Of a stretch of 32,000 bases of DNA, positions 6,685-20,900 are shown in pieces (within the stretch, counting starts at the first letter, position 1; each line of letters opens with the position of its first letter). The DNA lies in NCBI RefSeq assembly GCF_937138205.1, contig NZ_CAKZOT010000028.1, positions 1-32,000 of the forward strand. The letters run 5' to 3'. The notes under the pieces were generated by a model, which saw nothing but the letters and a program-made list of their open reading frames with translations, made no database searches and had not been told where the DNA came from. Origin of the DNA: an uncultured Rhodospira sp. (GTDB lineage Bacteria > Pseudomonadota > Alphaproteobacteria > Rhodospirillales > Rhodospirillaceae). A program made the position numbers and the translations under genes.

Positions 6685-6698
6685 CCGCCCGGCAAGCC

Positions 6699-9600
6699 TC
6701 ACCGGGCCTGCGCCAGGGGAAAGTCCTGGATGGTTCCGCCGCTCTTGAACTGGGCCTGCTGCCGGTATCCCTTCTCGCTGGCGAACAGCGGGACATGCTG
6801 CTTCACCTCGGTGCCCAGTTCCAGGACGGTGGCGACGCCATCGCCGCTTCGCGTGGCCTCTTCGAGAGCGGTCAGCACGGCATGACCGAACACACCGTTG
6901 CTCTCGTTGTACCCGTCCAGCGCTTCTTCTTCGGTCGAAGACGCTGCGAGAATGAAATACCCCGTTTCATTGCCGATCTCGCCGGGCGTGTTGGCCGGAA
7001 ACGCTCCCGAATGGCACGTATCAAGCATGACCAGGGTATTGGCCCCCATCAGGGAGCCGAACAGGGAGATGAGCCGGTCCTGGTCGACCCCCACCGCCGA
7101 CGCGCCGCTCGCCCCGGGCCCGTCGTGGGTCAGGAAGCGGTATCGCCGATCCTCGGTCAGGGTCCCATGCCCCGCCAGATAGACGACGACCGTATCGTTC
7201 GGCTTGATGCGTTGGCCGACCTCGGCGAACGCGCTCTCCAGCCCCGAGACCGTCGCATCCTGGTCGAACCGCCGCACAACAATGACGTCGTCGTACGCCG
7301 TCGCGGGCATGGCCAACAGCTTTTCGGACACAGAAAGCGCGTCACGCCGCGCAAAGGCCAGGTCCTGGACGGCGTCATAGACGTCGATCCCGACCGCGAT
7401 GACGAAGAGGATCGGTTTCTCCTGCTTCTCGGGTTCCGGAACCTGCAGGGAAAGGGTCACGGACTTGCCGAACACCCCCGAGGCGCCATAGGCCCTGACG
7501 GACACCGTGTTCAGACCGGGCTTGACCGCAATAATCCGGTCGGCCTGGACCGTGCTTTCCCCGTCCTCGCCCCCCTCGTCGGCAACCACCTCGGGCCGCT
7601 GGCGCGACAGGCCGCGAGTCAGGGTGCCCGTCGTGCGCCCGTTCAGGAACACAACGTGCCGGTCAATGGCTTCAGAGCCCGGAGTCATTTCATAGACCAG
7701 GCGAACCCGATCGAACCCAGGCGGCAGCGTGGACACCGCCGCGGGGGACGTTGTCTCCTCGGTTCGGCGGCGTGACAGCCCGCGACGGGCGTGCTCGGCC
7801 GGGAAACAGGCGGCATCGGCGCCATCCGCGTCGACAGCGCAGTACCGCACCAGACGCACCTTCGGCGCCTTGGCGATCGCCTCGGCCACGCCGGGCGCTT
7901 CTTCGCGGTCGGGCGCGTATTCCTCTTCTTCGACCCGTGGGGGTGTCTCCAGCTCTATCCGGCCCACCCGCTGGCGCATCCGGTCGATATCATAGAAGCG
8001 GCTGTAGAGCTGTGAGAAGTCGATCCAACGCGCGACATTGCGCCGGCCCCGGTTCTGGACGTAGCCGGCCAGCTCCTGGCCGCCGGCCGAATGCGCGAAG
8101 CGGCCGTCGGGCGACCACAGGATCCATCGCTGTCCGTCACCATGCACGAACAGAGCCGCGATTTCCCGCAAAACAGGGCCGGGCTCCAGCGCATACCACC
8201 GGATCGTTCCGTCTCGATGCGCGGCGACAAGGCGGTCGCCGTCGCCCGAGGCCACGACCCCGGAGGCCGCCGTCAGCACCACCTTTTCCCGTGTCACGGC
8301 CCCATCCCCGGAGAAGGTGGTCACCGCATAGTCACTGCCGATGGCGACCCCGCCACCCGGCAGCATCGTCGCACTGCGCGCGATGTCGCGGGGCCGCGCC
8401 ATGTCGAGTGGCTGCCCGGCGATTGACGGCGTGCGTCCGTCGCGCCATCCGGTCAGCCCCTCCGGCACCGACGGCGCCGAAAATGCCGGTGCGGCCTCGG
8501 GGGCGTCGGTGAGCGTCAACGTCCGCGCGTCGAACCGCAGGACCTTCGAGGTGTCCCCGGTGCGGAAAGTGAAATCAACGACCGCGCCATCGCGGGAGAC
8601 ACGGAAGACATCATCAAAGATGCCCCGGAAATCGGCGGTGGCCGGGCCTTGCCGAAATGCCACCGTGCCCGTTTCGCCCGTGATCCGGCCCCAGGCGGGG
8701 TCCCCGGTCGCGAACAGGACGTCCTGGTCAGGCGTGGTTTCCAGACGCGTCACGGCATCGCGGCTGACCGGGATATCGACGAACGCGTCGGGCCGCTCCA
8801 GGTCAGCCCAGCGCCGCACCACGATCTTCCGATCGGGGTTGACGAGTCCGCCGGAGGCCCAAAGCTCCGGCCCCGCCGCACCGGTCCGCCAGGCGACGGC
8901 ACTGAAAAACCGTTCGTCGGTGTCGGGACGATCGCCGGCAAGGGTCCGCGCGTGTTCCAGCGTATCGGCCTCCAGAATATCGACGCGGGGCTGGTCCACG
9001 TATGTCACGGCCAGCCACCGTCCATCGGGCGAAAAGCGCGCCTGGGCCGGCCGGCCGGATTCCGCCTGCCACGACTGAACGGTCTCGAACCCCACGCCGT
9101 AGACGCGAACCACCCCGTTGGTCGCCGCGGCCGCAAGGCGGCCATCGGGCGCGAACTCGACCCACGTCGTGGGCGCCCCAAGATCATCCGAGAAGACGCG
9201 TTGCAGCCGCTCGTTAATCACAATGATCCCGGCGGGATTGCGGGAGTGCGCGGTCGCGAGGCGGGTTTCGCGGGCCTCGGGCGCGGCGCGAAAGGTATCG
9301 ATGGCGTTGACAATGCCGCCGCTGGCCACGCGGTCGATGACATCAAGGCCGGAGGCAAAACGGATGAAGTACAGAAGGTTGAAACGCCGCCCCTGCTCGT
9401 CGGCGAAATAGCGGGCGCCCGTGAACCCGGCGGTGATGATGTGGCTTTCCCCCGGCCAATATCGGACGGCATTGAGAATGCCTTCCTCTTCGGGTCCGAT
9501 GGGCGTCCGGACGGTCTCAAGCAGTTCACCTGTGGTGGCGTCCCATAACCGCAACGTTTTATCGTCGGAAACAGTGGCCACGACCTTACCGTCGGCCCGC

Positions 9601-9794
9601 ACCGTCATGTCGCGAATTGTGCTGGTGTGGGAGCCGGTTTCGATCCGAAGGATCGGGTCCGTCGGCAGGCCGTCCGCGCGGGCGGCCGTGCTGACCAACC
9701 CATGACTCATTGCCAGGGTCACCAGACCCACCAGACCCCAACACAGGCGAACCGCAATGCGCCACAGCGGCGGCTGCTCGGCCGTCATGACCAT
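6699..9794 (-). CDS. Exported WD40/beta-propeller protein with C-terminal caspase-like (peptidase C14) domain
   Basis: Signal-peptide-like N-terminus: LWRIAVRLCWGLVGLVTLAMSHGLVSTAARA/DG. One classic WD40 blade (HTSTIRDMTVRADGKVVATVSDDKTLRLWD) is followed by degenerate blades (DRLVAAHRDGTIRWY, WILWSPDGRFAHS...). The C-terminal caspase fold has ILFVIAVGIDVYD, VVVYLAGHGT (catalytic His) and LVMLDTCHSGAF (catalytic Cys). I favour the ATG at 9794 (GGGAG 7 nt upstream); the track start at 9821 is also possible. Confidence 0.85.
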   Translation of the reverse strand: MVMTAEQPPLWRIAVRLCWGLVGLVTLAMSHGLVSTAARADGLPTDPILRIETGSHTSTIRDMTVRADGKVVATVSDDKTLRLWDATTGELLETVRTPIGPEEEGILNAVRYWPGESHIITAGFTGARYFADEQGRRFNLLYFIRFASGLDVIDRVASGGIVNAIDTFRAAPEARETRLATAHSRNPAGIIVINERLQRVFSDDLGAPTTWVEFAPDGRLAAAATNGVVRVYGVGFETVQSWQAESGRPAQARFSPDGRWLAVTYVDQPRVDILEADTLEHARTLAGDRPDTDERFFSAVAWRTGAAGPELWASGGLVNPDRKIVVRRWADLERPDAFVDIPVSRDAVTRLETTPDQDVLFATGDPAWGRITGETGTVAFRQGPATADFRGIFDDVFRVSRDGAVVDFTFRTGDTSKVLRFDARTLTLTDAPEAAPAFSAPSVPEGLTGWRDGRTPSIAGQPLDMARPRDIARSATMLPGGGVAIGSDYAVTTFSGDGAVTREKVVLTAASGVVASGDGDRLVAAHRDGTIRWYALEPGPVLREIAALFVHGDGQRWILWSPDGRFAHSAGGQELAGYVQNRGRRNVARWIDFSQLYSRFYDIDRMRQRVGRIELETPPRVEEEEYAPDREEAPGVAEAIAKAPKVRLVRYCAVDADGADAACFPAEHARRGLSRRRTEETTSPAAVSTLPPGFDRVRLVYEMTPGSEAIDRHVVFLNGRTTGTLTRGLSRQRPEVVADEGGEDGESTVQADRIIAVKPGLNTVSVRAYGASGVFGKSVTLSLQVPEPEKQEKPILFVIAVGIDVYDAVQDLAFARRDALSVSEKLLAMPATAYDDVIVVRRFDQDATVSGLESAFAEVGQRIKPNDTVVVYLAGHGTLTEDRRYRFLTHDGPGASGASAVGVDQDRLISLFGSLMGANTLVMLDTCHSGAFPANTPGEIGNETGYFILAASSTEEEALDGYNESNGVFGHAVLTALEEATRSGDGVATVLELGTEVKQHVPLFASEKGYRQQAQFKSGGTIQDFPLAQAR

Positions 9795-9840
9795 CGTCAA
9801 ACTCCCTGAGTCGTCTGTCATCGCCGGCGTGTGACGGGGG

Positions 9841-9983: not shown

Positions 9984-11048
9984 TCAGCTGAGGGTGAAGG
10001 CGTCGGTTTGCGCCTTGGACGTCGCCACTTCCTCGTACACGCGATCCCGCTTCTCGACATTGGCCAGGCTGACGGCCTGCAGGTCGCCGACCTTGTCCCG
10101 CTCGTTCGAGGGCAGAACCACGTCGTCAACGCGCCCGGGAGGAAGCGGTTTTTCCGCCGGCCGGTTCTCGATTCGCGCCGAAGCCGGACCGGCCCCGCGA
10201 CCGCGACCGATCAGGAAATCGGCGATGTAGGCTTGGCCGCCGTTCGGATTGACGATCCGCGACCACCCGTTCGCGCTCGACAAGACTGTCACACGGGTTC
10301 CCCGGGTCAGGCGGCCCACCTTGTCGTACTGCGTTCCGGGTCCCGACCGCAAATTGGCGGTGCGCGTCACGCGCGCGCCACCGCCCTGGGACAGGCGCGG
10401 CGCATTGACCTCAAGCTGCCGGCCGCCGTTGTCCGCCGCGATCTGGTTGTAGACGGCCGCATAGCCCTCGGTTCGGTCGGAAATGTTGCTGGCGATGCGC
10501 TCCATCTGTCGCACGTCTTCCTGGTACCGTTCGCGCACAGCGGCCATGCGCTCCTCGGCGACGGCGCGCGTGATGCGGCCGGCGTCAAGGGCCTCGCGGA
10601 TGTCCTGGGCCTCGTCGTACCGGCACCCGCGCAACGCCTCGAACCGGGTCAGCAGCAGGTCGATGCGGGTGTTTTCCTCGCGAACACCCTTGATGGCCGC
10701 CTCCGTAAGTTCGACCGAATTGCCGGTCTGCCGTTGAAGGTCGTACAACAGAGTTCCGGCGAGCGCGGCCGCGGCGCCCAGACCGGCCCCGACAAACGGA
10801 TTCTCATCGGCGAGCAGCGCCCCCAGGGCACCCGCCCCCGCCCCCAACAGGACATTGCGGAGCACCTCGGTTTCGAACGTGTTGCCGGTGCTGTCCAGGG
10901 CGGCCCGTTGGGCGTAGCATTTGTCGTCCTTGTCGGACAGATACCCCCCGGGAAGGATGCTGCCGATATTCGTTGTCTGGCAACCGCCAAGGACCAGCGC
11001 CGTCGCGACCGCCGTTGTCATGAAAAAGCGAGACCTCGTGTACGTCAT
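9984..11048 (-). CDS. Lipoprotein with Gly-zipper region, coiled-coil segment and bacterial SH3 domain
   Basis: ATG at 11048 with GGAGG 8 nt upstream. The lipobox is MTYTRSRFFMTTAVATALVLGG/C. There is a Gly/Ala-rich zipper (LLGAGAGALGALLA...GAGLGAAAALAG) and an SH3_3-like segment (ANLRSGPGTQYDKVGRLTRGTRVTVLSSANGWSRIVNPNGGQAYIADFLI). Confidence 0.75.
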   Translation of the reverse strand: MTYTRSRFFMTTAVATALVLGGCQTTNIGSILPGGYLSDKDDKCYAQRAALDSTGNTFETEVLRNVLLGAGAGALGALLADENPFVGAGLGAAAALAGTLLYDLQRQTGNSVELTEAAIKGVREENTRIDLLLTRFEALRGCRYDEAQDIREALDAGRITRAVAEERMAAVRERYQEDVRQMERIASNISDRTEGYAAVYNQIAADNGGRQLEVNAPRLSQGGGARVTRTANLRSGPGTQYDKVGRLTRGTRVTVLSSANGWSRIVNPNGGQAYIADFLIGRGRGAGPASARIENRPAEKPLPPGRVDDVVLPSNERDKVGDLQAVSLANVEKRDRVYEEVATSKAQTDAFTLS

Positions 11049-11076
11049 AAAAGATGCCTCCGCTGAAAGCCCAGGA

Positions 11077-12465
11077 TCAGGACGGGTCACTGACATACCC
11101 CACCAACAAAGGGGTGGGAACGTCGGCGTGGTGCAAGGCCAGATGGAACGGACGGTCGGCGACAAAGGTGAACGGCTCGGAGCCCGCCGTGCGCAGGCCG
11201 ATGACCGCCGTCGCGGCGGCGGCGACGGTGCCTTGCTCCGTCACCTCCACCACCGAGCGCTGCACCACATTGGTCACCGACGGAGGGATGCTGCCCTGGA
11301 TGCCCTGAATGGCCGCGCTGTCGCCGAGCAACGCGCCCATGCCCAGGGAAGACAACAGGCGTGTGAGTTCCATTTTCCGGTCCAGTGACAGTCGTGGCAG
11401 GCTCACGGTTCCCTCGCCCGGCCGGGTCGTCTCCGTGTGGTCGGTTGTGAACAGCCAGGCCAAGGATTCGGACCGCGCCGCGCTCGGGTCGCTATCCGTA
11501 TCAGGCAGGTACAACGTCAGCGACAGCTTCGGGTCGATGTAAAACAGACGAACGACCTGCCCATGCTCCGTGCGGGCATAGGGGAAGACGCCGGCGCGGG
11601 ACATCATGGGAACCTGCACCGGGCTCCCTGCTCCGGTCTGGAACGGACCGTCGGCCGTATCGGTCGGATCGAAGGGCCGCAACCAATCGCCCTTGAAATA
11701 GAACGCGTTGGTCAGGACGAGGCTGGTCTGCCTGGGGAGCCTGTCGACGATGGCCTCGACCGCGTTGTTTGTCTCCGCCGCGACCCAGTCGTTGATCGTC
11801 TTGCTCGGTTCGCCGGTGGCGAAGTCGATGGAAAAGACTTCGCCACCGAACACGGACTGCATTTGGTGCGAATAGTCCGGCGTCAACGTGTAGCCCGGCG
11901 CCAGCCACAGGGCGTTGGCAAACGTCACCGTGGCTTTTTCCGACGGCGGCAAATCATTGATCGCGGCCAAACTCTCATACGGAACCCCCACGGCCTCACG
12001 GATGGACTCCCTGAGGGGGGCCCTGGTGGCCTCGCCGATCATGCTGACGGCGATCTCCATGCTGGCCGGCGACAGCACCACATTGCCGTCCCCCTGGTCC
12101 AGCAATCCCTGGTACACCCGGGCGCCCAGGGTTTCGGCTGGCGGATCAAGGGCGACGACCGACGAGGGGATCGCCATCGCGCCGGCCGGATCGGGTTGCC
12201 CGCCCTCCGCCACGACCGTTCCGCCACCGTTCTGCGAGGACTCCGTCCCCGTCTGGGCGAAGGCCGGTGAGGCCAACGACACCAGCGGCTGGCCGCCGCG
12301 ACCCCGCTCGATCCCCGTGCCCGGCGCCATGCCGTCAATGGCCAGGCCGCAGCCGGCCCACACGCCCACAGCCCCCATCAGGGCGGCCCGGCAGGTGCGC
12401 CGCAGCCCGGATCCGCGGACCGATGGACGGTACCGTCCCTCCACGGGGATTGCATGGCCGCTCAT
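11077..12465 (-). CDS. Serpin (serine protease inhibitor), exported or lipoprotein-like
   Basis: Serpin core motifs: LVLTNAFYFKGDWLRPFD, VQVPMMS, and the reactive-centre-loop hinge VVEVTEQGTVAAAATAVIGLRTAGS followed by FVADRPFHLAL. The N-terminus has RR plus a hydrophobic stretch plus VWAGC (signal/lipobox-like). GGAGAAAGGGA precedes the ATG at 12465. Confidence 0.9.
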   Translation of the reverse strand: MSGHAIPVEGRYRPSVRGSGLRRTCRAALMGAVGVWAGCGLAIDGMAPGTGIERGRGGQPLVSLASPAFAQTGTESSQNGGGTVVAEGGQPDPAGAMAIPSSVVALDPPAETLGARVYQGLLDQGDGNVVLSPASMEIAVSMIGEATRAPLRESIREAVGVPYESLAAINDLPPSEKATVTFANALWLAPGYTLTPDYSHQMQSVFGGEVFSIDFATGEPSKTINDWVAAETNNAVEAIVDRLPRQTSLVLTNAFYFKGDWLRPFDPTDTADGPFQTGAGSPVQVPMMSRAGVFPYARTEHGQVVRLFYIDPKLSLTLYLPDTDSDPSAARSESLAWLFTTDHTETTRPGEGTVSLPRLSLDRKMELTRLLSSLGMGALLGDSAAIQGIQGSIPPSVTNVVQRSVVEVTEQGTVAAAATAVIGLRTAGSEPFTFVADRPFHLALHHADVPTPLLVGYVSDPS

Positions 12466-12537: not shown

Positions 12538-14943
12538 TCAGGGGAGAACCCGGTAGGTCGACTTGGCCATGGACCAGCGCGCCCGCCGAACGTTGGAATC
12601 CGCGCCGACCGTAGGCTGACGCAGCTGTTTCGCCAAGGTATCGATGAAAGCCTGAGGACCAGAGACCGCCAGCACTTCGTCCAACAAGGCCTGATCCAGG
12701 GGCGCCTCGGACACCACGGCCACCAGCAGATACTCGCCCGCCGGGGGCGCAACGGTGAACCATTCGTAGCCAGTGTTCAAGACATCGGGGACAACCTGTG
12801 ACTGTCCCGGCCGAATGACATACCGGTCGATGTAGGATTGTGGAGCCGGGATGACGCGACTTACGGTGCCCGACGGGCCAACCTCGAACAGCGTGAAGTG
12901 TCCCCCCAGGTCCGTATCGACCCGGATGCGGATGCGGTCGCCGATGGGCCGGTCCGGGGTGGGTTCGACCCGGATGGCCAACTGGGCCTCGGACGGCGGC
13001 GGATTGAGTCCCCCATTGATGGCGTCTCCCGGATCGTTCGCCGCCGCGCCCGTGACGACGTCTGAACTCAGGACCGCCCGCCGCGCCGACAGACCCGGCG
13101 TCAGGCCAAGCCCGCAGATGTCACGGTTCCGCTGGCAGTACGCCTCTGATTCCTCCGTCACGTAGTCGAGCAACTCGGCATGGCTGACGACGCCGTCGTG
13201 GTCGAAATCGGCCTTCAATTCGGCGATGCCGGCAACGAAACGCCCGGTGAAGACCCCTTGGGGAACAGGAGTCTCGTCGTCGACCAGCGCGAGCTGGCTC
13301 GGGCTGACCGCCGTCCAGGTCGTGACATGGCTGTCCAGGGCCTCGAATCCAGGCGCCAGTTGAGCCGCGCGCGTGCTTCCCCGCGTGGGGCTCGCCACCG
13401 CCCGCCACGGCGTTCCTGACGGCATACGGCGCAGGCTTCGGTTCTGGGCGGGACCGAAACCCCGCGTCATGGTCCCCGCGTGGCAGCTGTCGATAACCAC
13501 GGTGACCTGTCTGTCGGGTATCCGCGCCAGCAGCGCGCGGATCTCGTCGTCGCGGATGACGTTCTTGACGCCGTCCTCCTGGGCGGATCCATCCTGGGCC
13601 ACCAGAACCTCATCGGTTCCGTCGCTTTCGTCACCGTCATCATCCGCCACGCTGAAACCATGTCCGGAAAACGACAGGAACACCCGGCCGCCGGGTTTCG
13701 AACCCTCGACAAGCCAGCTCTCGATCGCGGCGAGAATGCCGTCGCGTGTGGCGGCGGAGTCCTTGAGAACCTTCACCTGATCCGTCTGGTAGCCAAAATG
13801 CTCGACCAGGAGGGTTGCCATGTTGTCGGCGTCGACGGTCGAGCCGACCAGGTCGTTGAGGTCGCCGACATAGTCGTCAATGCCGATGACAAGCGCGCGG
13901 TCTGAATCCGTGGGGGTCGGCGGCGGCGGCGGTGCCGGCTGGCCATTGTAGCGCGGGAGCGCGACGTATTGCTCGATCCACGAGGCGTACGCCGAAACGC
14001 GGGTGTAGACGCTGGGTTTCGGAAGGCACGGGACGGCCTCCGAGCCGGGGCCCCAACTGGTCAATCCGATTTGATAGTATTGCCCGTCCGCCGCGCGGGT
14101 CAGAATGGGCCCCCCGGAGTCCCCTTTGCAGGTATCGGAGACCCCAACGCCGGCGCATATCTGGTTCTCGGTGATCAGCCCCCTCAGGTTCGGCGTCATC
14201 TGACGCCGGCAGTCCGGCACCGAGACCACCGGAACCTCCGCGCGCAGGAGCTGTTCCGACGTGGCGGTCCCGCGTCGATCCGTCCGCCCCCAGCCGACGA
14301 CGACCGCGTCTTGGCCGGATTGCTCGACCTGCGCGGCAACCGGTCCGACACCGAGGCGGACGGTCGGCACGTCAAGGTCGTCCTCCAGTTCCAGCAGCGC
14401 AATGTCGTGCAGCTCTCCGTTCGTGGAAATGTAGTCCGGATGAACAATGGCCCGAGTGACTTGCGACGCGGGGCCATAGGTACGGACCTTGCCGGGCGCC
14501 ACCACGTCGGGCCGACGGACGTTGCCGGCCTGCACAATGACCGTGGCGGTCCCCCGGACCGGATCCAGGATGACGCGGTTATCCTCATCGTAAACACAAT
14601 GCGCGGCGGTGAGCACCCAGCGGGGCGCGACCACGGTCCCGCCGCACATGATGTTCCCCTCGCGCTTTGCAATGAAGAGGAAGGCCTGATACGGCCAAGC
14701 GTTCGCGCGAGCGGGCCTGCCGCCGATGATCCGCGTCCCCCCCGAGGGGAGGACGGGACGGTTGGCGGGGCGCACCAGGCGGTCCTCACCGCTCGCCTGG
14801 TCACCGGACGGGTCTTGAGTCCCGCCCCGAACGATTTCGAACCGCGGCAGTCCGCCCTCTGCCCGCGCGCTGTTGCTTCCAAACAGGACCGCCACCGCGG
14901 CCACGGCGATCAGCAGCACCCCCAGGATTGAACGGTTCAGCAT
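12538..14943 (-). CDS. Exported fusion protein: trypsin-like S1 serine protease + caspase-like C14 domain + EF-hand-like loop + DUF4384-like C-terminal domain
   Basis: Signal peptide MLNRSILGVLLIAVAAVAVLFGSNSARA/EG. The S1 triad is present: RIIGG...LTAAHCV (His), DIALLEL (Asp), DTCKGDSGGP (Ser; the Asp six residues before it is the trypsin-type S1 pocket). A Pro-rich linker (PAPPPPPTP) follows. The caspase part has LVIGIDDY, FLSFSGHGFS (His) and VVIDSCHAGT (Cys). The DxDxDG loop is DFDHDGVVSHAELLDY, and the C-terminal beta-rich segment is IRIRVDTDLGGHFTLFEVGPSGTV...GEYLLVAVVS. Confidence 0.9.
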   Translation of the reverse strand: MLNRSILGVLLIAVAAVAVLFGSNSARAEGGLPRFEIVRGGTQDPSGDQASGEDRLVRPANRPVLPSGGTRIIGGRPARANAWPYQAFLFIAKREGNIMCGGTVVAPRWVLTAAHCVYDEDNRVILDPVRGTATVIVQAGNVRRPDVVAPGKVRTYGPASQVTRAIVHPDYISTNGELHDIALLELEDDLDVPTVRLGVGPVAAQVEQSGQDAVVVGWGRTDRRGTATSEQLLRAEVPVVSVPDCRRQMTPNLRGLITENQICAGVGVSDTCKGDSGGPILTRAADGQYYQIGLTSWGPGSEAVPCLPKPSVYTRVSAYASWIEQYVALPRYNGQPAPPPPPTPTDSDRALVIGIDDYVGDLNDLVGSTVDADNMATLLVEHFGYQTDQVKVLKDSAATRDGILAAIESWLVEGSKPGGRVFLSFSGHGFSVADDDGDESDGTDEVLVAQDGSAQEDGVKNVIRDDEIRALLARIPDRQVTVVIDSCHAGTMTRGFGPAQNRSLRRMPSGTPWRAVASPTRGSTRAAQLAPGFEALDSHVTTWTAVSPSQLALVDDETPVPQGVFTGRFVAGIAELKADFDHDGVVSHAELLDYVTEESEAYCQRNRDICGLGLTPGLSARRAVLSSDVVTGAAANDPGDAINGGLNPPPSEAQLAIRVEPTPDRPIGDRIRIRVDTDLGGHFTLFEVGPSGTVSRVIPAPQSYIDRYVIRPGQSQVVPDVLNTGYEWFTVAPPAGEYLLVAVVSEAPLDQALLDEVLAVSGPQAFIDTLAKQLRQPTVGADSNVRRARWSMAKSTYRVLP

Positions 14944-16604
14944 TGCGGGGCCCCTTGTGCGCAGGTGTACAAGGCGAACAATCCCAACCGATAGGACGCC
15001 GATCGCAATCGCTCTTCCATCCTGTCCGGCACATCAAGCGCACGCGTCGTGCCGTCCAGGCCACGCAACGCTTCGACCATGTCGGGCAATGGGCGATCCG
15101 TGGCGAGGCCGACCAGCAGATCGGCCCCGTAGGGGCGGCCGACCAGGATATCCTCCAGGATAAACGGCTCGGCCGGATCGCGCGGCCCGGCTTCCACCGC
15201 ATCGAGAGGGTAAAGGAACTGGACGGTGCCGTCGTTGGCCAGATTGACGAGCGTCAAGTAAGGGTACGTGAGGTCGTCCATGATCAGCGTCACCAGTTCC
15301 CCGTCGGCGTAGGTCGGCTTCGGGGGCGACGCCGCGATTGTCAAGGGGGCCATTTCGGCCAGCGCGGCGAACCGCAGATGGGCGCGAGCCTTGCTCACAA
15401 CGCCCTGCAATGCGTCGGCGTCGATGTCCTCGGCGACCACCGTATCAATGCCACTGATCACATCGCCGGTCGCCGGATCCCAGACGATGTCCGGCGTCTC
15501 GGTTACCGCGACGACCTGAACGCCCTCCAGTGGCGGCAGCCTCGCGGCGACCTCTCCGTGCACGGCCAGCCGGATGGGCCGATCGGGCATGGGAGCGGGC
15601 GAGGAGTGAGCGCCAGCGGCCGGTGACAAGTCCGCGTGCCAGTTCTCGTCACTGGCGACGATGCTGGGAATCTGCTGGCCCTGCGTTGCGGTCCTGATGT
15701 TCCGGATGATGTAGTCCTTGAACTCATCGAACCTGAGCACGCCGTCCCGGTCGGCATCCGCCGCGCCGCGCAGGCCCCGGGCGAAGTAGTAGCTCAGGGC
15801 GCCGCGCGGCACCGCCTGTCCGGACTCGTCGGGCAAGGCGATCTCCGGCGCGAGGCTGTCATCCAGCACGGCGGAAAACGAAAACAGGTTGTCGGCGATC
15901 GTCTCCTCGGCGCCCCCTGAGTCCACGTCCAATCCCTCGAACAGCATCGACTCATCGAGGTCCGCCATAAGGTCGCCCTCGACCTTGACGTTCGAGAATC
16001 GGTAGCGCGGTCGCACGCGCCGGTCGACGGCGCGGAAGGTCGTTCCCGAGTGGCAGGCGTCGACGACAAGGGCGACGGTGACGCCCTTGTCGCCAGCCTT
16101 GTCAACAAACGCGCCGATCTCGTCATCCAGGATGAAATCCTGGCGCCCGGGTCCGCGCCGTTCGAAGGCGTGCAGGGCCAGGAACTCGTCGTAGCCGTCC
16201 GCTTCTTCGCTATCGACGGCGGCGACGCGCTGCATTCCGTGGCCGGCATACGTCAGCAACAGCAGGTCACCGGGGTGCGCGCGCGCCAGGGCGCGATCCC
16301 ATGCCCCCACAACGGCCCCCCGGGTCGCCTGGTCGTCGAGAAGCACCGACAGATCCGTGATGCCCAGCGTTCGCAGCGTCTCGGCGATATCCCGCGCGTC
16401 ATTGACCGCGCCGCTCAGGTCCGAGAGGATGCCTTCCGGGTCGCGGTAGTCGTCGATGCCAACCACCACCGCCCGCCACTCGCCGGCCTGCGCTTGCGCG
16501 AGAGCCGGATCGGACACCATGCCCAGCAGCGCCGCGCCGGCAAGACTGCCGGCCAACAGCGCGGACGCCACGGGTCGGCACACTCTATTGGGCACAGACA
16601 CCAT
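14937..16604 (-). CDS. Exported caspase-like (C14) protein with EF-hand-like loop and DUF4384-like C-terminal domain
   Basis: I favour the ATG at 16604 (GAGGA 6 nt upstream); the track start is a GTG at 16625. Signal peptide: VASALLAGSLAGAALLGMVSDPALA/QA. The caspase part has AVVVGIDDY, LLLTYAGHGMQ (His) and LVVDACHSGT (Cys). The Ca-binding-like loop is DADRDGVLRFDEFKDYI. The 3' end overlaps the next gene's ATG by 7 nt (14937-14943). Confidence 0.85.
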   Translation of the reverse strand: MVSVPNRVCRPVASALLAGSLAGAALLGMVSDPALAQAQAGEWRAVVVGIDDYRDPEGILSDLSGAVNDARDIAETLRTLGITDLSVLLDDQATRGAVVGAWDRALARAHPGDLLLLTYAGHGMQRVAAVDSEEADGYDEFLALHAFERRGPGRQDFILDDEIGAFVDKAGDKGVTVALVVDACHSGTTFRAVDRRVRPRYRFSNVKVEGDLMADLDESMLFEGLDVDSGGAEETIADNLFSFSAVLDDSLAPEIALPDESGQAVPRGALSYYFARGLRGAADADRDGVLRFDEFKDYIIRNIRTATQGQQIPSIVASDENWHADLSPAAGAHSSPAPMPDRPIRLAVHGEVAARLPPLEGVQVVAVTETPDIVWDPATGDVISGIDTVVAEDIDADALQGVVSKARAHLRFAALAEMAPLTIAASPPKPTYADGELVTLIMDDLTYPYLTLVNLANDGTVQFLYPLDAVEAGPRDPAEPFILEDILVGRPYGADLLVGLATDRPLPDMVEALRGLDGTTRALDVPDRMEERLRSASYRLGLFALYTCAQGAPQC

Positions 16605-17577
16605 AGCGCTCCTCGGATACGCCACCCTGGCCGTAGAACACCTCGACCCTGCGGTTGATTTGCCAGCGCTCCTCCTGAGTGTATCCGCCCGGATTGCTCA
16701 GCCGCACAGGCACCCGTTCGCCGCACCACCGCACCCGCACGGATCCCGGGAAGCCGTTGGCCTGAAGATAATCCTTGAGGCGGAGCGCGCGCCGCTTTGA
16801 CAGCTCCAGGTTGTGGATATCCGATCCTCGATCGTCGGTGTGGCCGATCACAGTGACGGAATGGGGCGTTTCCTTGCGCAGGATCGGCAACAGCCGCTCG
16901 GCCGAAACCTGGCCACGGGGATCGAACTCGGCCTTGTTTGTGACAAACGTGATTTGCGGCGTCTTTTTCGGAACGGCGATGCCCCGAACGGTCGGCGCGA
17001 AGTAAGGCGTCGGCGCGCCGCCGCGGGTCGTGGGCTCCACCGGAATGGAACTGAGGGACAGCGCCTCCGATGCCGCGTCGTGCACCGCCAGGATCGTCTC
17101 CTGGTCGGGCGGCGTGCGGGTGAAGCGCGTATCGTCAATCAGTTCGAGGGCTTTGAAGTACTGCTCGGTGGCGTCGCTGAACCGTTTCCGGGACATGGCG
17201 AGTTCGCCGAGCAGACGCCGCAATTCCCAATGATCCCCGTACGCGAGAAAGGCCTCGGCGTCCGCGATGACGCCGGAAACGTCCTCGCCCTTTTCGAGCC
17301 TGAGCCGAGCAAGTCGTGCCGCCAACAGGCCAAGGTTCGACCGCGCATCGATCCGGTTCTGCGGCGGGCAATAGAGGTCGATGTCCTCGATCAGACCGCT
17401 GGCTGTCGTGATATCAGCCTGCTTGAGCGCGGCGACAAATTCTTTCAGCGCACTGCGACAAGAGTCGGCACCGCCCGGCGTCGCACTGGCAGGCCCCGGA
17501 CTTAAAAACAAAAACAAACCGACGCACAGAACCGCGCACCGTACATGCTTTGATAAACGGTCTTCCTCGTCCAACAC
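16585..17577 (-). CDS. Exported helical (TPR-like) protein with OmpA-family peptidoglycan-binding C-terminal domain
   Basis: OmpA_C pattern: ITFVTNKAEFDPRGQVSAERLLPIL...VTVIGHTDDRGSDIHNLELSKRRALRLKDYL. Signal peptide: KHVRCAVLCVGLFLFLSPGPASA/T. I favour the GTG at 17577 (GGAGGGGGG just upstream); the track start at 17673 would add 32 non-signal residues. The 3' end overlaps the next gene by 20 nt. Confidence 0.8.
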   Translation of the reverse strand: MLDEEDRLSKHVRCAVLCVGLFLFLSPGPASATPGGADSCRSALKEFVAALKQADITTASGLIEDIDLYCPPQNRIDARSNLGLLAARLARLRLEKGEDVSGVIADAEAFLAYGDHWELRRLLGELAMSRKRFSDATEQYFKALELIDDTRFTRTPPDQETILAVHDAASEALSLSSIPVEPTTRGGAPTPYFAPTVRGIAVPKKTPQITFVTNKAEFDPRGQVSAERLLPILRKETPHSVTVIGHTDDRGSDIHNLELSKRRALRLKDYLQANGFPGSVRVRWCGERVPVRLSNPGGYTQEERWQINRRVEVFYGQGGVSEERYGVCAQ

Positions 17578-17968
17578 TAGCCCCCCTCCAATACAAAGAA
17601 AGCGTTCGACGATCGGAATGCCAATACGATCAAAGGGAAATATCGTTTCTTTGTCCCCGAACCCATGAACCATAGGGAGGCGTATTTAAATATTGCATTT
17701 TGTGGTGTTTATCCTATTATAGATTTTCTGTCAAGGGGCACGGAACAGATTCGTCGGCAAGGTGCTGTTGAATGGTATTGCCGCGAGGCGGCACCCGGGC
17801 TCGGCCTTTCAATCGTCAGTCCGTCGCCCCGCGGCGACGGAAGGTGAACGGTGAAACCAGCAGTCGACAATTGAATACGGCGCCGATTCTCGTGCCTGGG
17901 GACGTGACTCCCCGAATTGGCCGGCAAAGCATTTAGGCGATTCCGATTTGATCTTGTTGGAGGGGGCA
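17578..17968. promoter_or_regulatory. Divergent intergenic control region with a strongly AT-rich patch
   Basis: The ~390-bp spacer lies between the minus-strand six-gene operon and the plus-strand STAND gene. The 17680-17740 stretch (gtatttaaatattgcattttgtggtgtttatcctattatagattttctg) is far more AT-rich than the rest of the window. A perfect 8-bp hairpin, ccgtcgcc-ccgc-ggcgacgg, sits at 17821-17840. Promoters are inferred, not mapped. Confidence 0.4.
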
Positions 17969-20900
17969 GTGGGTGACGTCCGGGTCTTCATTTCATCCCC
18001 AGGGGATGCACAGGCGGAACGCGCCCGCATTGAGAGGGCAATCGATCGACTAAACGGCCTGATAGGGGGCTCCGTCCGCCTCAAGGCGATCCGTTGGGAA
18101 TCGGGCTACTACACGGCGGCCAGCACCTTCCAGACCCAGATTCCGGAAGCGGCGGAGTGCGACATCGTCCTGGCGGTTCTGCGCCACCGACTGGGGACGC
18201 CGCTGCCCGAGGACTTCAAGCGGATGTCGGACGGCGCGCCATATCCCAGCGGGACCGCCTACGAGATCCTCTCGGCGGTCCACACCAGCCAGCACAAAGG
18301 GACCCCCGACGTCTACGTGTTCCGCTACGCGCACCCACCCCAGGTGGGCAATATCGACGACACCGCGGCGCTGACCCAGACCCGGGAGGACTGGGAACGC
18401 CTGAAGGGGTTCTTCCAGTCCTGGTTCGAGACGGATACCGGTCAGTTCAAGGCTGCCTTCCATCGATATGACAGCGTCGACGTGTTGGAAGGTCAGGTGG
18501 AGGATCTCCTCCAAACCTGGGTCGAAGACCATCTGAACACGGGCCAGCTGGTCGAGTGGCCGATCCACCTCAAGGGCTCGCCTTTTCGAGGCCTTGCCGC
18601 GTTCGGCGCCCGGCACGCCGCCGTCTTCTTCGGTCGCCGGCGTGAAACCCTGCGCGCCGCCGAGGCGCTCAAGGATGCGGCGGACCGGGGCACACCGGCG
18701 CTCCTGCTGGTCGGCCCAAGTGGTTCCGGAAAATCCTCCCTGGCGCGCGCTGGACTGATCCCGCATCTGACCGCGCCGGGCGCGGTCTCGGACGTCGACC
18801 TGTGGCGGGTGGCCAGCCTCTGTCCGGGTGAACATCCCGACGGGCCCGTTGCGGCCCTGGCCGCGCGCCTGTTCACGGCCGAGCGGGATATGGAGCCGGA
18901 CGATGAGGGCTGGCCGCGCGCCCTGCCGGAACTTGCCCACGGCGACTTCGCGACCCCGGACGCCCTTGCGGCGTTGCTCGCCGGCACGAACACCACTGCG
19001 GCAACAGGCCCCATCCTGGCCGCATTGGACCGCGTGGCAGAGGAAACCCGGCGCACGGAAGCGTTCGACAGGCCGGTCACCGTCCGCCTCTTGCTCCTCG
19101 TGGACCAGTTCGAGCAGCTTTTCGCCGACGCCGTGGATCAGGCAGACAGAACCGCGTTCACAACCCTGCTGCGGGCGCTTGTGGAGACGCGACGCGTCTG
19201 GGTGATCGGCACGCTGCGAGCCGACTACTATGAAGCCTTCATTGCCGACCCCAACCTGCTGCCCCTGAAGCGCGACGGCGCCCACGTCGATCTCCGTCCG
19301 CCCGGCATGGACGCGATGGCCGAGATCATCCGCGCCCCGGCACGGGCGGCCGCCCTCGTCTACGAGGTCGATGCCAAGGGTACCGGTCTCGACGAGCGGA
19401 TTCTGGCCGAGGCCGATCGGCCCGACATGCTGCCCCTGGTCCAGTTCACGCTGAACCGGCTGTTCGAGGTCCGGAGCGAGGCGAGCGGCGAAATCCGGCT
19501 GACCCATGCCGCCTACGACGCCATGGGGGGGCTTGACGGGGCCATCAATCAGGAAGCCGACCGGGCCATCGCCAATCTCGGCGAGGCGGACCGGAAAACC
19601 TTGCCGCGCCTGCTCCGCCTGATGGTCGTGCCAGCCACCAACGCGGGCTCGGCCAGCGAGGCCTCGCGCCGCATGGCCGTGCGGCCGATCCCCTGGCGCA
19701 CGGCCACGGGCGACCCGGCGCAACGCCGGCTCGTGGAGGCCTTGATCGAAGCGCGTATTCTGTATCTGTCCGGAAGCGGCCCAAAGGCGCACGTTCAGCT
19801 CGCGCACCAGCGCGTCCTGGAAAGCTGGGCGCTCGCACGCAAGATCGTCGCCGACAACGTGGACTTCTTCCGCATCCGCCAGGATGTGGAGGACGCCCGC
19901 GTCCGCTGGCAGACCAGCAACCGCCCCCGCGACCGCCTGATCCCCCCAGGCGTCGCGCTGGCCGAGGCGGAATCCCTCGCCGCCCGGTTCCAGGATGAGT
20001 TGACCGAGGACACGCGCGGCTTCATCCGCGCTTCGGGCCGGCGGGCGCGGCGGCGCCAGAGGCTCACCACCATGGCCGCGGCGGTCTTCGCGGGCGTCGC
20101 GGTGCTCGCCGCTTGGTCGTACATGCAGGCGGAAACCGCCCGGAATGAGGCGGCCGGCAACTACCAGATCGCCCTGAATGTGGTCGACGGCCTCGCCCTG
20201 GACATCATCGAGGGCCTGCAAACCAACTGGAGCGTCCCCGTCGAGGAGAAGCTTTACGTCGCCGACAGGATCGAGGGAAATCTCGGCGACCTCGTGGCGG
20301 AGGTTGAAGACGACCAGGTACTGAGGTTGCGGTACGCGGATGTCCTGGCGTCGACCGCATACATGCTTGCCCTCGTCGGTCATCACCGCGCGGCGGAAGA
20401 CAGCGCGCAAAACGCCGCCCGACAATTGGCGACGATCGATCCGGACACCATCGACACACGCGGCTGGGACAAGGCCCGGCCGGCGGCGTTGACCCAGGCC
20501 CGGGTGAACGTCGCTTTGGCCTTGGGACGATGGCAGGCCTTCGATCAAGCCGCCGTGGAGCGCCATCTCCGCAGCGCAGAGGACAGCCTGGCCCGCCTGT
20601 CCGCCTCGGAGACGGAGGTCACGGCTTCCGACGTTGCAGAGCTCAGGGCATGGATGGACGATCTTCGGATCACCCTGATGATCGCCAGACGCGACACCCT
20701 GGCCTACCAGGAAGAGCATATGGCGGCGGTGGAGCGCCGCCGGGCCGACCTCGAACGGGCCCGCGACAATGGCGACACCCGCGCGGCACGCCTCATCGCC
20801 TTCCACCTTGCCAAGCTCGCCGTGGGCGATGCCGCCTTCGCGGCGGGAACCGGAGCGCGCGACTTCGAGGACCGGCACAAACGCGCGTCGGAGATTTCGG

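Follow-up and report, generated by a model that had tools for sequence, protein, structure and literature searches.

The gene at 12538..14943 of the window (the whole 32,000-nucleotide stretch analysed here, from an uncultured Rhodospira sp.) is provisionally identified, with moderate confidence, as encoding an exported two-protease zymogen of the Trypsin/orthocaspase (C14)/DUF4384 family, in which the S1 half would be switched on by a cut after Arg71, the C14 half would be gated by Ca2+ and the whole would be restrained by a serpin from the same conserved envelope operon. The gene is a member of an uncharacterised family that has already been noted in Alphaproteobacteria, and by its sequence it is the predicted catalytically intact, intact-dyad sister form of the QC proteins of that family. 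The conserved envelope operon around the fusion is a new context and the more interesting point than the fusion itself. The features of the gene are as follows.

12538..14943, minus strand: whole gene of the trypsin–caspase fusion, 801 aa, stop codon included (ORF, Pfam, 34 full-length homologues)
14860..14943, minus strand: predicted Sec signal peptide, residues 1-28 (MLNRSILGVLLIAVAAVAVLFGSNSARA-EGG), read from the sequence
14731..14859, minus strand: propeptide, residues 29-71, ending at the activation site R71, which is followed by I72-I-G-G (AlphaFold disorder, conservation)
13960..14730, minus strand: S1A trypsin-fold protease domain, residues 72-328 (Pfam, PDB sequence matches, Foldseek)
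13903..13959, minus strand: Pro-rich interdomain linker, residues 329-347 (read from the sequence)
13477..13902, minus strand: C14 p20-like catalytic part, residues 348-489 (Pfam, alignment with Yca1 and CgMCA-I, conservation)
13339..13476, minus strand: Arg-rich, poorly ordered linker past the catalytic Cys, residues 490-535 (AlphaFold, conservation)
13084..13338, minus strand: p10-like part of the caspase fold, residues 536-620 (AlphaFold secondary structure, conservation)
13174..13209, minus strand: EF-hand-like 12-residue loop DFDHDGVVSHAE, D579-F-D-H-D-G-V-V-S-H-A-E590 (pattern, sub-threshold Pfam match)
12541..12996, minus strand: C-terminal beta-sandwich tail, residues 650-801 (Pfam DUF4384, model)

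The reading frame has no internal stop over its 801 aa and is matched by the Pfam families Trypsin, Peptidase_C14 and DUF4384, in agreement with the first-pass annotation of a single polypeptide carrying an S1 and a C14 protease. The protein comprises, in order, the signal peptide, the 43-aa propeptide, the S1A trypsin, the Pro-rich linker, the metacaspase-like C14 domain, the EF-hand-like loop and the DUF4384 beta-sandwich tail. Both catalytic sets, earlier described as intact, are present: H115, D180 and S276 of the S1 half (motifs TAAHC, HDIAL and SDTCKGDSGGP) are in register with human tryptase, and H428 and C487 of the C14 half (SGHG and DSCHAG) align with the dyads of yeast and Candida metacaspase-1. 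In the AlphaFold model (mean pLDDT 80), both protease folds are confident, while the propeptide and linkers are disordered. The predicted signal peptide has a basic n-region (R4), a 16-residue hydrophobic core and the residues A-R-A-E at 26-29, with the cut before E; residues 4-20 form a lone helix in the model, and an N-terminal hydrophobic segment is found in every aligned homologue of the fusion. The Pro-rich linker noticed earlier contains PAPPPPPTP at about 335-345, where the pLDDT falls at 333-336, and its length varies from 15 to >90 residues across the homologues.

The same single-ORF architecture is found in 34 homologues from independent assemblies, at 30-55% identity over >90% of the length. 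That two neighbouring genes were joined by a sequencing or assembly error is almost inconceivable, for although unfused versions occur elsewhere (loci L010 and L005), the ORF is continuous and the fusion recurs in dozens of independent assemblies, complete Rhizobium replicons included. About 50 clusters at 90% identity and 25-30 at 50% identity share the architecture, and the named relatives are all Alphaproteobacteria (Rhizobium, Minwuia, Paracoccaceae, Hyphomicrobium, Xanthobacter and Siculibacillus). Among Rhizobium plasmid records, 88 match the fusion at E<=1e-20, 12 of them over at least 80% of the protein, and these carry only the label 'trypsin-like serine protease'. Trypsin-DUF4384 proteins without a caspase domain are also common. 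The arrangement is thus less unusual than had been implied, as it recurs in Alphaproteobacteria and is already in print (PMC6426788).

The S1 domain is matched by the full Trypsin profile (PF00089; residues 72-323, E 1.9e-47, 162.4 bits against a cutoff of 20.6, profile positions 1-220 of 220), and it contains His57, Asp102 and Ser195 in order together with the GDSGGP motif, which are the sequence criteria of S1A. It matches tryptase and matriptase at 1e-30 by sequence, while Foldseek gives a TM of about 0.8 to thrombin, elastase and tryptase. In the homologue alignment the triad and the six cysteines of the pairs 100/116, 245/263 and 272/306 are invariant; over 35 sequences, the counts are 35/35 for H115, 35/35 for S276 and 34/35 for D180. 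As aligned with human tryptase, where the triad and D189 are in register, D270 corresponds to chymotrypsin position 189, D275 to 194 and S276 to 195. As to the earlier prediction of Arg/Lys specificity for this half, D189 is present and is kept in 28 of the 35 aligned members. The pocket contains D270 (c189) and G298 (c216) but carries Ser rather than Gly at position 226 (KPSVYTRV vs RPGIYTRV), and the four closest relatives carry S, T or G at position 189, because of which the predicted Arg specificity of the S1 half is uncertain and its Arg/Lys specificity is not secure.

In S1A enzymes the activating cut creates an I-[IV]-G-G N-terminus, which pairs with Asp194. The built-in activation step suggested in the first-pass annotation is plausible, since the zymogen site [RK]-[IV]-[IV]-G-G, with R or K at P1 and I or V at P1', is kept in 35/35 aligned members, as is D194 (D275 of the fusion). 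The pLDDT is <50 over residues 22-68, which cover most of the propeptide.

Peptidase_C14 (PF00656) matches residues 349-494 (E 9.3e-20, 71.7 bits against a cutoff of 21.4), but only over profile positions 3-138 of 233. The key residues of the p20-like part are D371, H428, the acidic motif D434-E445, D451, D465/D466 and C487. The C14 half had been described as of the metacaspase type, and this is borne out by its PDB sequence matches, which are metacaspases and GSU0716 only (Yca1 at 1.2e-19 and CgMCA-I at 1.1e-16, with H428 and C487 aligned to their dyad), and by the pocket residues D371 and D451, which are invariant and align with Asp residues that are conserved in Yca1; an acidic S1 pocket of this kind would confer Arg/Lys specificity. 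Of the 35 family members, 27 retain the dyad. Since the match stops short of the C-terminal part of the Pfam profile and no p10 is detectable by HMM after the p20, the protein is an orthocaspase by the published criterion, in which metacaspases and orthocaspases are distinguished by an HMM-detectable p10 domain after p20 (PMC6426788). The AlphaFold model places p10-like strands and helices at 540-619 after a linker of about 50 residues (strand 540-544, helices 564-574 and 588-605, strand 617-619), and C603 and C610 in this part are invariant. The linker itself has pLDDT <50 at 490-498 and low values up to about 535, and contains R494, R506 and R521, which are at least 90% conserved, the pseudo-caspase clade included, and are candidate maturation cleavage sites.

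The Ca ligands of CgMCA-I are G196, D198, D214, T242 and D245 (PMC9622860). In the alignment, G442 and D444 of the cation-loop motif D434-E445, together with D465 and T491, match four of these five, the equivalence to D214 hanging on a 5-residue gap, while the fifth ligand, D245, is replaced by R494 (PMC9622860). The loop earlier named as an EF-hand motif fits both DxDxDGxVxxxE and the canonical pattern D-x-[DN]-x-[DN]-G-x-[ILV]-x-x-x-E, is flanked in the model by the helices 564-574 and 588-605, and is conserved in 25 of 35 members. Its Pfam matches are EF-hand families only, but all are below threshold (EF-hand_1, 16.5 vs 25.4 bits), and in the fusion protein it is a lone loop without a partner, for which reason it is termed EF-hand-like here. 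The cation-loop motif would be the stronger of the two lines of sequence evidence for Ca dependence of the C14 half. The acidic motif (DGDExDGxDE) and the EF-hand-like loop are both present in intact-dyad members, and were lost along with the dyad in the Xanthobacter/Siculibacillus clade and the Rhizobium QC variants.

The tail, described as DUF4384-like on first reading, is confirmed as such by PF14326 (residues 667-748, window 12700-12945; E 4.3e-9, 36.8 bits against a cutoff of 27). It is modelled as an Ig-like beta sandwich (pLDDT 84), for which Foldseek returns weak generic Ig-like matches alone, e.g. MG domains of C3/C4/C5 and CARDB (E about 3e-3). Elsewhere, DUF4384 is tied to signalling kinases and caspases (PMC6426788). 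A kinase gene adjoins the R. etli locus.

The two active sites are complementary across the 35 aligned members. Seven proteins have no D189, six of which keep the HC dyad, and eight have no dyad, seven of which keep D189, so that all but one of the 35 still have at least one predicted Arg-specific site.

The fusion is the third gene of a six-gene cluster, in the order OmpA-like anchor, C14 protein, fusion, serpin, SH3 lipoprotein and WD40-C14 protein. Its other members are listed below.

16585..17673, minus strand: OmpA-C-like peptidoglycan-binding protein, first gene (Pfam OmpA 2.9e-11, conserved position)
14937..16625, minus strand: upstream partner, exported C14 protein, 562 aa as listed (Pfam, sequence)
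11077..12465, minus strand: downstream serpin, exported, 462 aa (Pfam Serpin PF00079 2.1e-75, profile 5-370/370)
9984..11048, minus strand: SH3_3 lipoprotein (Pfam SH3_3 1.5e-13; lipobox LVLGGC and a Gly-rich hydrophobic segment)
6699..9821, minus strand: exported WD40 beta-propeller and C14 protein, 1040 aa, last gene (Pfam; intact dyad, AGHG and DTCHSG)

All six proteins begin with a signal peptide or lipobox as judged from their sequences. The OmpA-C-like protein, whose N-terminal part is helical, probably starts about 35 codons downstream of the listed start, and M40 of the listed ORF (MTYTRSRFF...) is the probable start of the SH3_3 lipoprotein. In the upstream C14 protein the dyad is intact (AGHG, DACHSG), and the protein also carries an EF-like loop of its own (DADRDGVLRFDE) and ends in a DUF4384-like tail. 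The stop codon of its gene overlaps the ATG of the fusion by 7 nt. Fusion and serpin are 72 nt apart, an SD sequence lying in the gap, and no predicted terminator separates the upstream C14, fusion and serpin genes. The co-transcribed serpin and partner caspases, overlooked in the first-pass annotation, are the most informative context of the gene.

At locus L081, the same six genes stand in the same order at 49-60% identity between unrelated flanking genes, with the SH3_3 lipoprotein (55%) and the WD40-C14 protein (60%) at the same positions; L010 has an equivalent of the latter. The core of OmpA, C14, fusion and serpin genes also occurs in L082, L085, L003, L002 and Rhizobium etli p42e, and an orthologue of the upstream C14 protein holds the same position in L081, L082, L085, L002, L003, L010 and L086. 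Hyphomicrobium zavarzinii has the same cluster, but with Trypsin-DUF4384 and C14-DUF4384 as separate genes.

At 9 of 11 loci a serpin gene follows directly 3' of the fusion; L001 and L084 have none. The window serpin, which is matched by PDB serpins at 1e-36, is predicted to be inhibitory, having the full fold, a hinge of inhibitory type with small residues at P15-P9 (EQGTVAAAATAV, E410-Q-G-T-V-A-A-A-A-T) and an exposed reactive loop. The Arg of this loop (R425, window 11191-11193) is invariant in all co-encoded serpins whose loop was read. Counted from the hinge Glu, it comes 15 residues on at five loci but 16 residues on at two; its P1/P2 register is ambiguous by one position, and strict counting puts that of the window serpin at P2.

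These features suggest the following mechanism. The protein would be exported by Sec, the signal peptide being removed after A28, and the three canonical S1A disulfides as well as C603/C610 would form in the oxidising periplasm. The 43-residue propeptide would hold the S1 half latent until a cut after R71 frees Ile72, which could pair with D275 (chymotrypsin Asp194) and form the active site, the residues for this being present. The cutter of the R71 site would be Arg-specific, and may be the protein's own or its neighbour's metacaspase-like C14, or S1 itself where D189 is present. The C14 half would require Ca2+ via the cation loop (D434-E445 and D465), possibly also via the EF-hand-like loop at 579-590, a need that would keep it silent in the low-Ca cytoplasm, and would probably mature by cuts at the conserved Arg residues of the disordered 490-535 linker. 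These residues are kept in pseudo-caspase members too, which fits S1 cutting C14 or the reverse. Against a need for Ca2+ stand the Arg at the fifth ligand position, the sub-threshold and unpaired state of the EF-hand-like loop, and the reported Ca independence of the orthocaspase MaOC1. The periplasm of a bacterium in Ca-rich water would always hold Ca, which speaks against Ca as a trigger; Ca would instead mark the compartment. The co-transcribed serpin, as its sequence and conserved synteny suggest, would covalently trap prematurely active protease and set a threshold, while the DUF4384 Ig-like tail, the OmpA-like protein and the SH3 lipoprotein may tether the proteases to peptidoglycan or the outer membrane. 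The P2 count for the Arg of the window serpin and the lack of a serpin at L001 and L084 weigh against this reading.

It is also possible, if rather unlikely, that the trypsin half is the sole working protease, the C14 half being mainly a regulatory or scaffold module (binding, dimerisation, positioning) with a dyad retained by chance in this lineage, the serpin being aimed at S1 and no cross-activation taking place. The S1 triad is invariant, whereas the C14 dyad is lost in 8/35 members and in many Rhizobium QC variants (PMC6426788); the QC-variant loci L002 and L086 retain the serpin and its Arg although their cis C14 is predicted inactive, and caspase-free Trypsin-DUF4384 proteins are, as noted above, common. 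However, in clades with an intact dyad, the dyad itself, both Asp residues of the S1 pocket, the acidic cation loop and the EF-like loop are all conserved across 35-55% identity, a pattern that points to selection on catalysis. The dyad is also retained by six of the seven members without D189, and an intact-dyad C14 protein is still encoded immediately upstream at the QC-variant loci. An improbable reading is a secreted degradative or antagonistic protease acting in nutrition or on competitors or prey, the serpin serving as a periplasmic immunity protein during export, as in protease–inhibitor pairs of the AprA/AprI type. The signal peptide, the disulfide-rich S1A domain and the inhibitor gene directly downstream would suit such an enzyme, and S1A enzymes of bacteria are typically extracellular. 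Yet the window shows neither secretion-system genes nor C-terminal secretion signals, and the partners are peptidoglycan-binding envelope proteins (OmpA-C, SH3 lipoprotein) together with two further exported caspases, of which one has a WD40 propeller, so that the set looks like a tethered regulated assembly and not a bulk enzyme. The ties of DUF4384 to signalling kinases and caspases (PMC6426788), and the kinase gene beside the R. etli locus, also speak against it.

It is very improbable that the protein works in the cytoplasm as the effector of a conflict or defence system governed by the neighbouring 1753-aa nSTAND1 NTPase, in the manner of the effectors of Kaur et al. 2020. The gene of this NTPase (4.2e-80) is divergent, with 275 nt between it and the upstream end of the operon, and on the operon's other side lies a patatin phospholipase that PADLOC matches to an effector; such systems typically use trypsin and caspase effectors (PMC7159879). 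However, all operon proteins carry export signals and the S1A domain has disulfides, the NTPase, patatin and RyR genes are absent at the orthologous L081 and other loci, and PADLOC returned a generic caspase match only, recognising no defence system on the window.

Going beyond the exported, serpin-restrained zymogen favoured here, we put forward as a speculation, and a doubtful one, that the products of the six-gene operon form a Ca2+-dependent protease cascade in the periplasm, tethered to peptidoglycan, which would run from a WD40-caspase sensor through an orthocaspase to the trypsin-caspase zymogen, with the serpin as a suicide inhibitor setting the threshold. If true, the operon would give bacteria a counterpart to the extracellular cascades that serpins control in animal immunity and clotting, the cascade would serve envelope surveillance, defence or controlled self-lysis, and a prokaryotic serpin would gain a cognate endogenous target.

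Alphaproteobacterial proteins composed of trypsin, QC pseudo-orthocaspase and DUF4384 were described by Klemencic, Asplund-Samuelsson, Dolinar and Funk in 2019, whose discussion does not extend to intact-dyad fusions, the zymogen site or the serpin operon (PMC6426788). The window protein is like this class in its N-terminal trypsin with an intact His-Asp-Ser triad, its C14 p20, its C-terminal DUF4384 and its alphaproteobacterial host (PMC6426788). An example is RHE_RS24695 (WP_011427988.1) of Rhizobium etli CFN42 p42e, which shares 33-34% identity over 88% of the length as well as the flanking C14 and serpin genes. Unlike the QC class, the window protein has His428 (SGHG), where R. etli and R. 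lusitanum have SGQG (Gln for His), and keeps the acidic cation loop and the EF-hand-like loop that are degenerate in QC proteins.

Type I metacaspases (yeast Yca1, 4f6o; Candida glabrata CgMCA-I, 7qp0; Trypanosoma MCA2, 4afp) are the best matches to the C14 half (1e-19 to 1e-8) and share with it the dyad, the Asp residues of the S1 pocket and the cation loop DGDExDGxD, four of five Ca ligands being mapped (PMC9622860). As CgMCA-I matures, its post-Cys linker is removed at Lys/Arg; the corresponding linker of the window protein is disordered and carries conserved Arg residues. These enzymes are cytoplasmic and eukaryotic without serine protease fusion, whereas the window protein is an exported fusion which has no Pfam p10 match (profile 3-138), carries Arg as the fifth Ca ligand and has its EF-like loop inserted between two p10-region helices. 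MaOC1 of Microcystis aeruginosa, said to be the only characterised orthocaspase and reportedly Ca-independent, is likewise a prokaryotic C14 protease in which no p10 is detectable by HMM. It cleaves specifically at Arg and reaches its mature form by autoprocessing (Klemencic et al. 2015, cited in PMC6426788). Unlike the window protein, it is not known to be exported, and it has neither a trypsin domain nor a partner serpin.

Bacterial multi-protease defence modules include the CHAT-to-PCaspase cascade of type III CRISPR and gasdermin-activating proteases. The window operon is like these in coupling several peptidase domains, drawn from different clans, within a single locus, with proteolytic activation proposed. 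Caspase-like and trypsin-like effectors of NTPase conflict systems have been described by Kaur et al. in 2020 (PMC7159879). Such modules are cytoplasmic with NTPase or CRISPR sensors, whereas the window operon is predicted to be exported and peptidoglycan-anchored, encodes a serpin and was assigned to no system by PADLOC.

In the clotting, complement, arthropod CLIP/Toll and prophenoloxidase cascades of animals, S1A zymogens are cut before I-[IV]-G-G outside the cytoplasm and are checked by inhibitory serpins with a basic P1. The partners in the window operon, which is bacterial and by prediction periplasmic, are of the caspase type and not further S1A enzymes, and any likeness is one of functional analogy, not of membership. 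It consists in the zymogen site, the predicted action outside the cytoplasm, the basic residue of the serpin loop and the presence of several proteases together.

The gene at 12538..14943 (minus strand) encodes one polypeptide, as the first-pass annotation had proposed in describing a trypsin-like S1 protease joined to a caspase-like C14 protease, with a Ca-binding-like loop and a DUF4384-like tail. Its open reading frame runs uninterrupted through 801 codons with no internal stop, so that it is not two genes separated by a stop or a frameshift, and homologues sharing the architecture exclude an assembly artefact. All the motifs quoted in that annotation are present at their positions, both in the sequence and in an alignment of 35 fusion-family sequences, to which the counts of members below refer. 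Pfam matches Trypsin at residues 72-323 (E 1.9e-47, whole profile), Peptidase_C14 at residues 349-494 (9.3e-20, profile positions 3-138 of 233) and DUF4384 at residues 667-748 (4.3e-9, exceeding the threshold), and the two protease halves belong to the peptidase groups S1A and C14, respectively. The AlphaFold model, for which 35 homologues were used as input, has a mean pLDDT of 80 with both protease folds confident, and low confidence is limited to the propeptide (22-68), the Pro-rich linker (333-336) and the loop after the catalytic cysteine (490-498).

The fusion is the third of six co-directional genes, which are given below in the order of transcription as matched by Pfam.

Genes of the protease operon in the window
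16585..17673, minus strand, OmpA-C-like protein
14937..16625, minus strand, C14 protein with intact dyad
12538..14943, minus strand, fusion
11077..12465, minus strand, serpin (2.1e-75)
about 9984..11048, minus strand, SH3_3 lipoprotein
6699..9821, minus strand, WD40 + C14 protein

The ATG of the fusion is overlapped by 7 nt by the stop of the upstream gene, while the serpin starts 72 nt downstream of the fusion behind a GGAG-type ribosome-binding site, and a promoter and terminator scan, otherwise uninformative, predicted no terminator between the two. Each of the six proteins has a signal peptide or a lipobox at its N-terminus. As listed, the SH3_3 reading frame (9984-11165, minus strand) overlaps at its start the 3' end of the serpin gene, and the true start is likely M40 (coordinate 11048), which gives the lipoprotein signal ALVLGGC. 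Behind this signal come a hydrophobic, Gly-rich stretch (LLGAGAGALGALL...GAGLGAAAALAG) that resembles those of glycine-zipper outer-membrane lipoproteins, a coiled region and the SH3 domain.

In the S1 half, H115, D180 and S276 form the catalytic triad and D270 occupies chymotrypsin position 189, as aligned with human tryptase, which agrees with the earlier assignment of these residues. H115 and S276 are invariant, D180 is found in 34 of the 35 members, and six invariant cysteines (100/116, 245/263 and 272/306) correspond by position to the three canonical S1A disulfides. The predicted zymogen site of the window fusion, R71|I72-I-G-G, is preceded by a 43-residue, Cys-free, disordered propeptide; across the family, P1 is Arg or Lys and the next residue Ile or Val (35/35 each), and Asp194 (D275) is invariant, so that R71|I72-I-G-G and D275 would constitute a classical zymogen arrangement. 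The Arg/Lys specificity previously predicted for this half is partly supported, as D189 is kept by the window fusion and by 28 of the 35 members in all, but position 226 is Ser, not Gly, in the window fusion, and position 189 is S, T or G in its four closest relatives. This specificity is thus likely but not secure.

In the C14 half, H428 and C487 are the catalytic His/Cys dyad, as aligned with yeast and Candida metacaspase-1, again in agreement with the first-pass annotation. The dyad is retained in 27 of the 35 members, while D371 and D451 in the pocket do not vary. By the HMM criterion this half would be classed as an orthocaspase, since the p10 profile is unmatched; its nearest relatives in sequence are type I metacaspases, and the model contains p10-like elements (strand 540-544, helices 564-574 and 588-605, strand 617-619). 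The acidic segment directly after the catalytic histidine, D434-DDGDESDGTDE-445, aligns with the loop that binds cations in type I metacaspases. The crystal structure of CgMCA-I has five Ca ligands, the fifth being D245 (PMC9622860); four of the five are matched in the window fusion by G442, D444, D465 and T491, whereas D245 is replaced by R494 (PMC9622860). Residues 490-535, past the catalytic cysteine, are poorly ordered and Arg-rich, with R494, R506 and R521 near-invariant.

The Ca-binding-like loop, D579-F-D-H-D-G-V-V-S-H-A-E590, sits between two helices, fits the canonical EF-hand loop pattern exactly and is kept in 25 of the 35 members. The segment matches EF-hand families only, all of them scoring under the Pfam cut-off (16.5 against 25.4 bits), and has no partner loop, for which reasons it is named EF-hand-like here. 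The upstream C14 protein also has such a loop (DADRDGVLRFDE), and C603 and C610, C-terminal to the loop in the fusion, are invariant. When the full model was compared with the PDB by Foldseek, all matches had the trypsin fold and none informed on the C-terminal half; the tail (650-801) was therefore modelled separately. It forms an Ig-like beta sandwich with two helices, whose matches in the PDB are weak and generically Ig-like, including macroglobulin MG domains, so that no function can be read from them.

The serpin has a hinge of the inhibitory type (E410-QGTVAAAATAV). Its reactive-loop arginine (R425) is invariant across all co-encoded serpins in which the loop was read, at an overall identity of only 28-44%. 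This Arg lies 16 residues past the hinge Glu, the standard P1 position, in two loci and 15 residues past it in five, the window included; R425 is most naturally read as a basic P1, with a register ambiguous by one residue. Such an arginine would suit the D189 trypsin site or an Arg-specific site of the metacaspase type, and plant serpins inhibit metacaspases according to a reference listed in PMC8233489. As the serpin is kept at loci encoding the QC variant, in which Gln replaces the catalytic His of the C14 domain, we infer that its targets include at least the S1 domain. The serpin at L083 (12821-14458), a related fusion locus, carries near its N-terminus an insertion of about 190 residues with Gly/Ser-rich repeats (GGGLGGGSGGG...), because of which it was missed by the pre-computed Pfam annotation.

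The six genes recur in identical order at L081, whose fusion is 55% identical, flanked by oligopeptide transporter and ribonucleotide reductase genes; the module is thus delimited by unrelated flanks. The core of OmpA, C14 protein, fusion and serpin is also found at L082, L085, L003 and L002, and on R. etli p42e (RHE_RS24685-24700), where a Ser/Thr kinase gene follows. L083 contains OmpA, fusion and the serpin with the long Gly-rich insert, while the P0040 contig (JGI 3300067032) contains fusion and serpin. A serpin lies directly downstream in 9 of 11 fusion loci; none is directly downstream at L001 and at the Xanthobacter locus L084. In Hyphomicrobium zavarzinii ATCC 27496 (L010 42-13058, NZ_KB911256.1) the set occurs unfused, as a WD40-C14 protein (1343 aa, including a Big_7 domain), Trypsin-DUF4384, serpin, OmpA and two C14-DUF4384 proteins, which independently supports joint action of the trypsin and caspase components.

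Several of these loci hold further protease genes. On P0040, two genes directly after fusion and serpin (4749-9209) each join Peptidase_C14 to an HtrA-type Trypsin_2 domain and PDZ domains, apparently an independent, second kind of caspase/serine-protease fusion. Extra exported caspases with fused PG_binding_1 and FGE-sulfatase domains surround the fusions of a clade at 37-40% identity (L082 611-5752; L083 15766-22544; L085 4757-6028 and 15238-18188), together with stand-alone DUF4384 proteins and, in L085, an ECF sigma factor, and the neighbourhood of envelope caspase genes seems to be larger in these genomes. Pseudo-caspase fusions are adjoined by Ser/Thr protein kinase genes in R. etli p42e (L086 10683-13088) and Xanthobacter sp. 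AM11 (L084 4345-6968), the latter with a PP2C phosphatase as well, which hints at a link of the protease family to transmembrane phospho-signalling.

Other genes of the window, for an nSTAND1 NTPase, a patatin and a TrkA-RyR protein, were rejected as operon members, as none is conserved at other loci. For the operon itself, PADLOC returned a generic caspase model only and recognised no defence system. The nSTAND1 protein (17948-23209, plus strand; 1753 aa, 4.2e-80) has weak matches to DUF4062 at its N-terminus and to PADLOC PDC-S60, and about 1100 C-terminal residues without a Pfam match; its gene is divergent from the operon across a low-GC (0.586) intergenic region. Beside it, an IS66-family transposase fragment (23300-24097, plus strand; profile positions 148-281 only) suggests a decayed insertion sequence and a mobile or variable region. 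A 966-aa TrkA_N + RyR-domain protein (2576-5476, plus strand) overlaps by 4 nt a patatin-like phospholipase (5473-6684, plus strand) matching PADLOC 'Effector phospholipase' models (2.9e-42), and the pair, which has no synteny link to the protease operon, may form a two-gene module for conflict or defence.

Taken as a whole, the most likely mechanism, of which we infer export, cleavages, Ca dependence, serpin target, localisation and role, would start with export of the fusion with its S1 half as a latent zymogen, activated by an Arg-directed cut at R71|I72. The C14 half would be Ca-gated and mature by cuts in the 490-535 linker, while the serpin would set the threshold and DUF4384, OmpA-C and SH3 would tether the components to the wall. 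In the main rival reading, the C14 domain serves mostly for regulation and the parts that matter are the trypsin half and the serpin alone, as indeed sister clades do without the C14 dyad. In the clade including Xanthobacter and Siculibacillus the catalytic Cys is replaced (DTTQVS), and often the His too (SGQG), and these proteins also lack the acidic cation loop and the EF-hand-like loop; in the Rhizobium QC proteins the His and both loops are gone together. No such loss is seen for the trypsin triad. In the intact-dyad clades, however, dyad, pocket and Ca motifs are conserved jointly, which argues against the regulatory reading. Six of the seven proteins without D189 have an intact dyad and seven of the eight without the dyad have D189, so that at least one predicted Arg-cutting site is present in 34 of the 35, and the zymogen site is basic in all. 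This correlation of losses fits Ca-dependent C14 catalysis and an Arg-directed activation step, and is suggestive only because the evolutionary events are few. The sister clades, having lost the caspase dyad and both Ca motifs and kept the trypsin site, amount to a natural experiment on pseudo-enzymes.

When 5.8 billion proteins were searched, about 50 clusters (90% identity) were found with the Trypsin + C14 + DUF4384 architecture, at 30-55% identity to the window fusion across more than 90% of the query. All carriers with a taxonomic name belong to the Alphaproteobacteria (Rhizobium, Minwuia, a Paracoccaceae MAG, Xanthobacter and Siculibacillus). Among 1.84 billion representatives (50% identity), an exhaustive search placed the full fusion in roughly 25-30 clusters, together with about 70 shorter proteins of 480-530 aa matching residues 345-800 only, namely C14, EF-hand-like loop and DUF4384 without the trypsin. 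In a plasmid collection (E<=1e-20), 91 records match, 88 of them Rhizobium, coverage of the protein reaches 80% or more in 12 records, and the listed matches are mostly labelled 'trypsin-like serine protease'. The contig scan used three patterns, all within the trypsin domain, and about 70 of the 80 scanned loci are therefore ordinary trypsins; L001, L002, L003 and L010 were informative, with L005, L021, L022, L041, L046 and L061 for comparison.

The architecture, which the first-pass annotation implied to be unusual, is accordingly neither rare nor newly seen, having been in print since 2019 and occurring on dozens of Rhizobium replicons. Alphaproteobacterial Gln-Cys pseudo-orthocaspases almost always carry an N-terminal trypsin with intact His-Asp-Ser and a C-terminal DUF4384 (Klemencic et al. 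2019, PMC6426788), and the R. lusitanum and R. etli CFN42 proteins are of this QC type (SGQG and D[SA]CHVG). The window fusion shares the architecture of that class (PMC6426788) but has an intact dyad in place of the QC feature, and would thus be its catalytically intact relative, or sister form. Earlier surveys go no further than recording OmpA and proteolysis domains within operons of metacaspases (PMC3501461); no description of a bacterial serpin/caspase/trypsin operon or of the fusion's zymogen site was found in the literature. A recent phylogenetic survey describes the function of serpins in prokaryotes as enigmatic and states that serpin-regulated proteolytic networks are absent there (PMC8233489). 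The operon, whose protease-inhibitor pairing is conserved over 28% to 60% identity and in unfused form in Hyphomicrobium, is a concrete candidate, open to experimental test, for a protease network that would act outside the bacterial cytoplasm and include an endogenous serpin. Its genetics are tractable, as R. etli CFN42 has the operon core, and the cultured type strain H. zavarzinii is usable for experiments. In comparison with what is known, the fusion architecture was noted in 2019 and the class is uncharacterised; noteworthy here are the intact-dyad form and its fixed partners, namely another exported caspase, the peptidoglycan anchors, a WD40-caspase and a serpin whose Arg is conserved.
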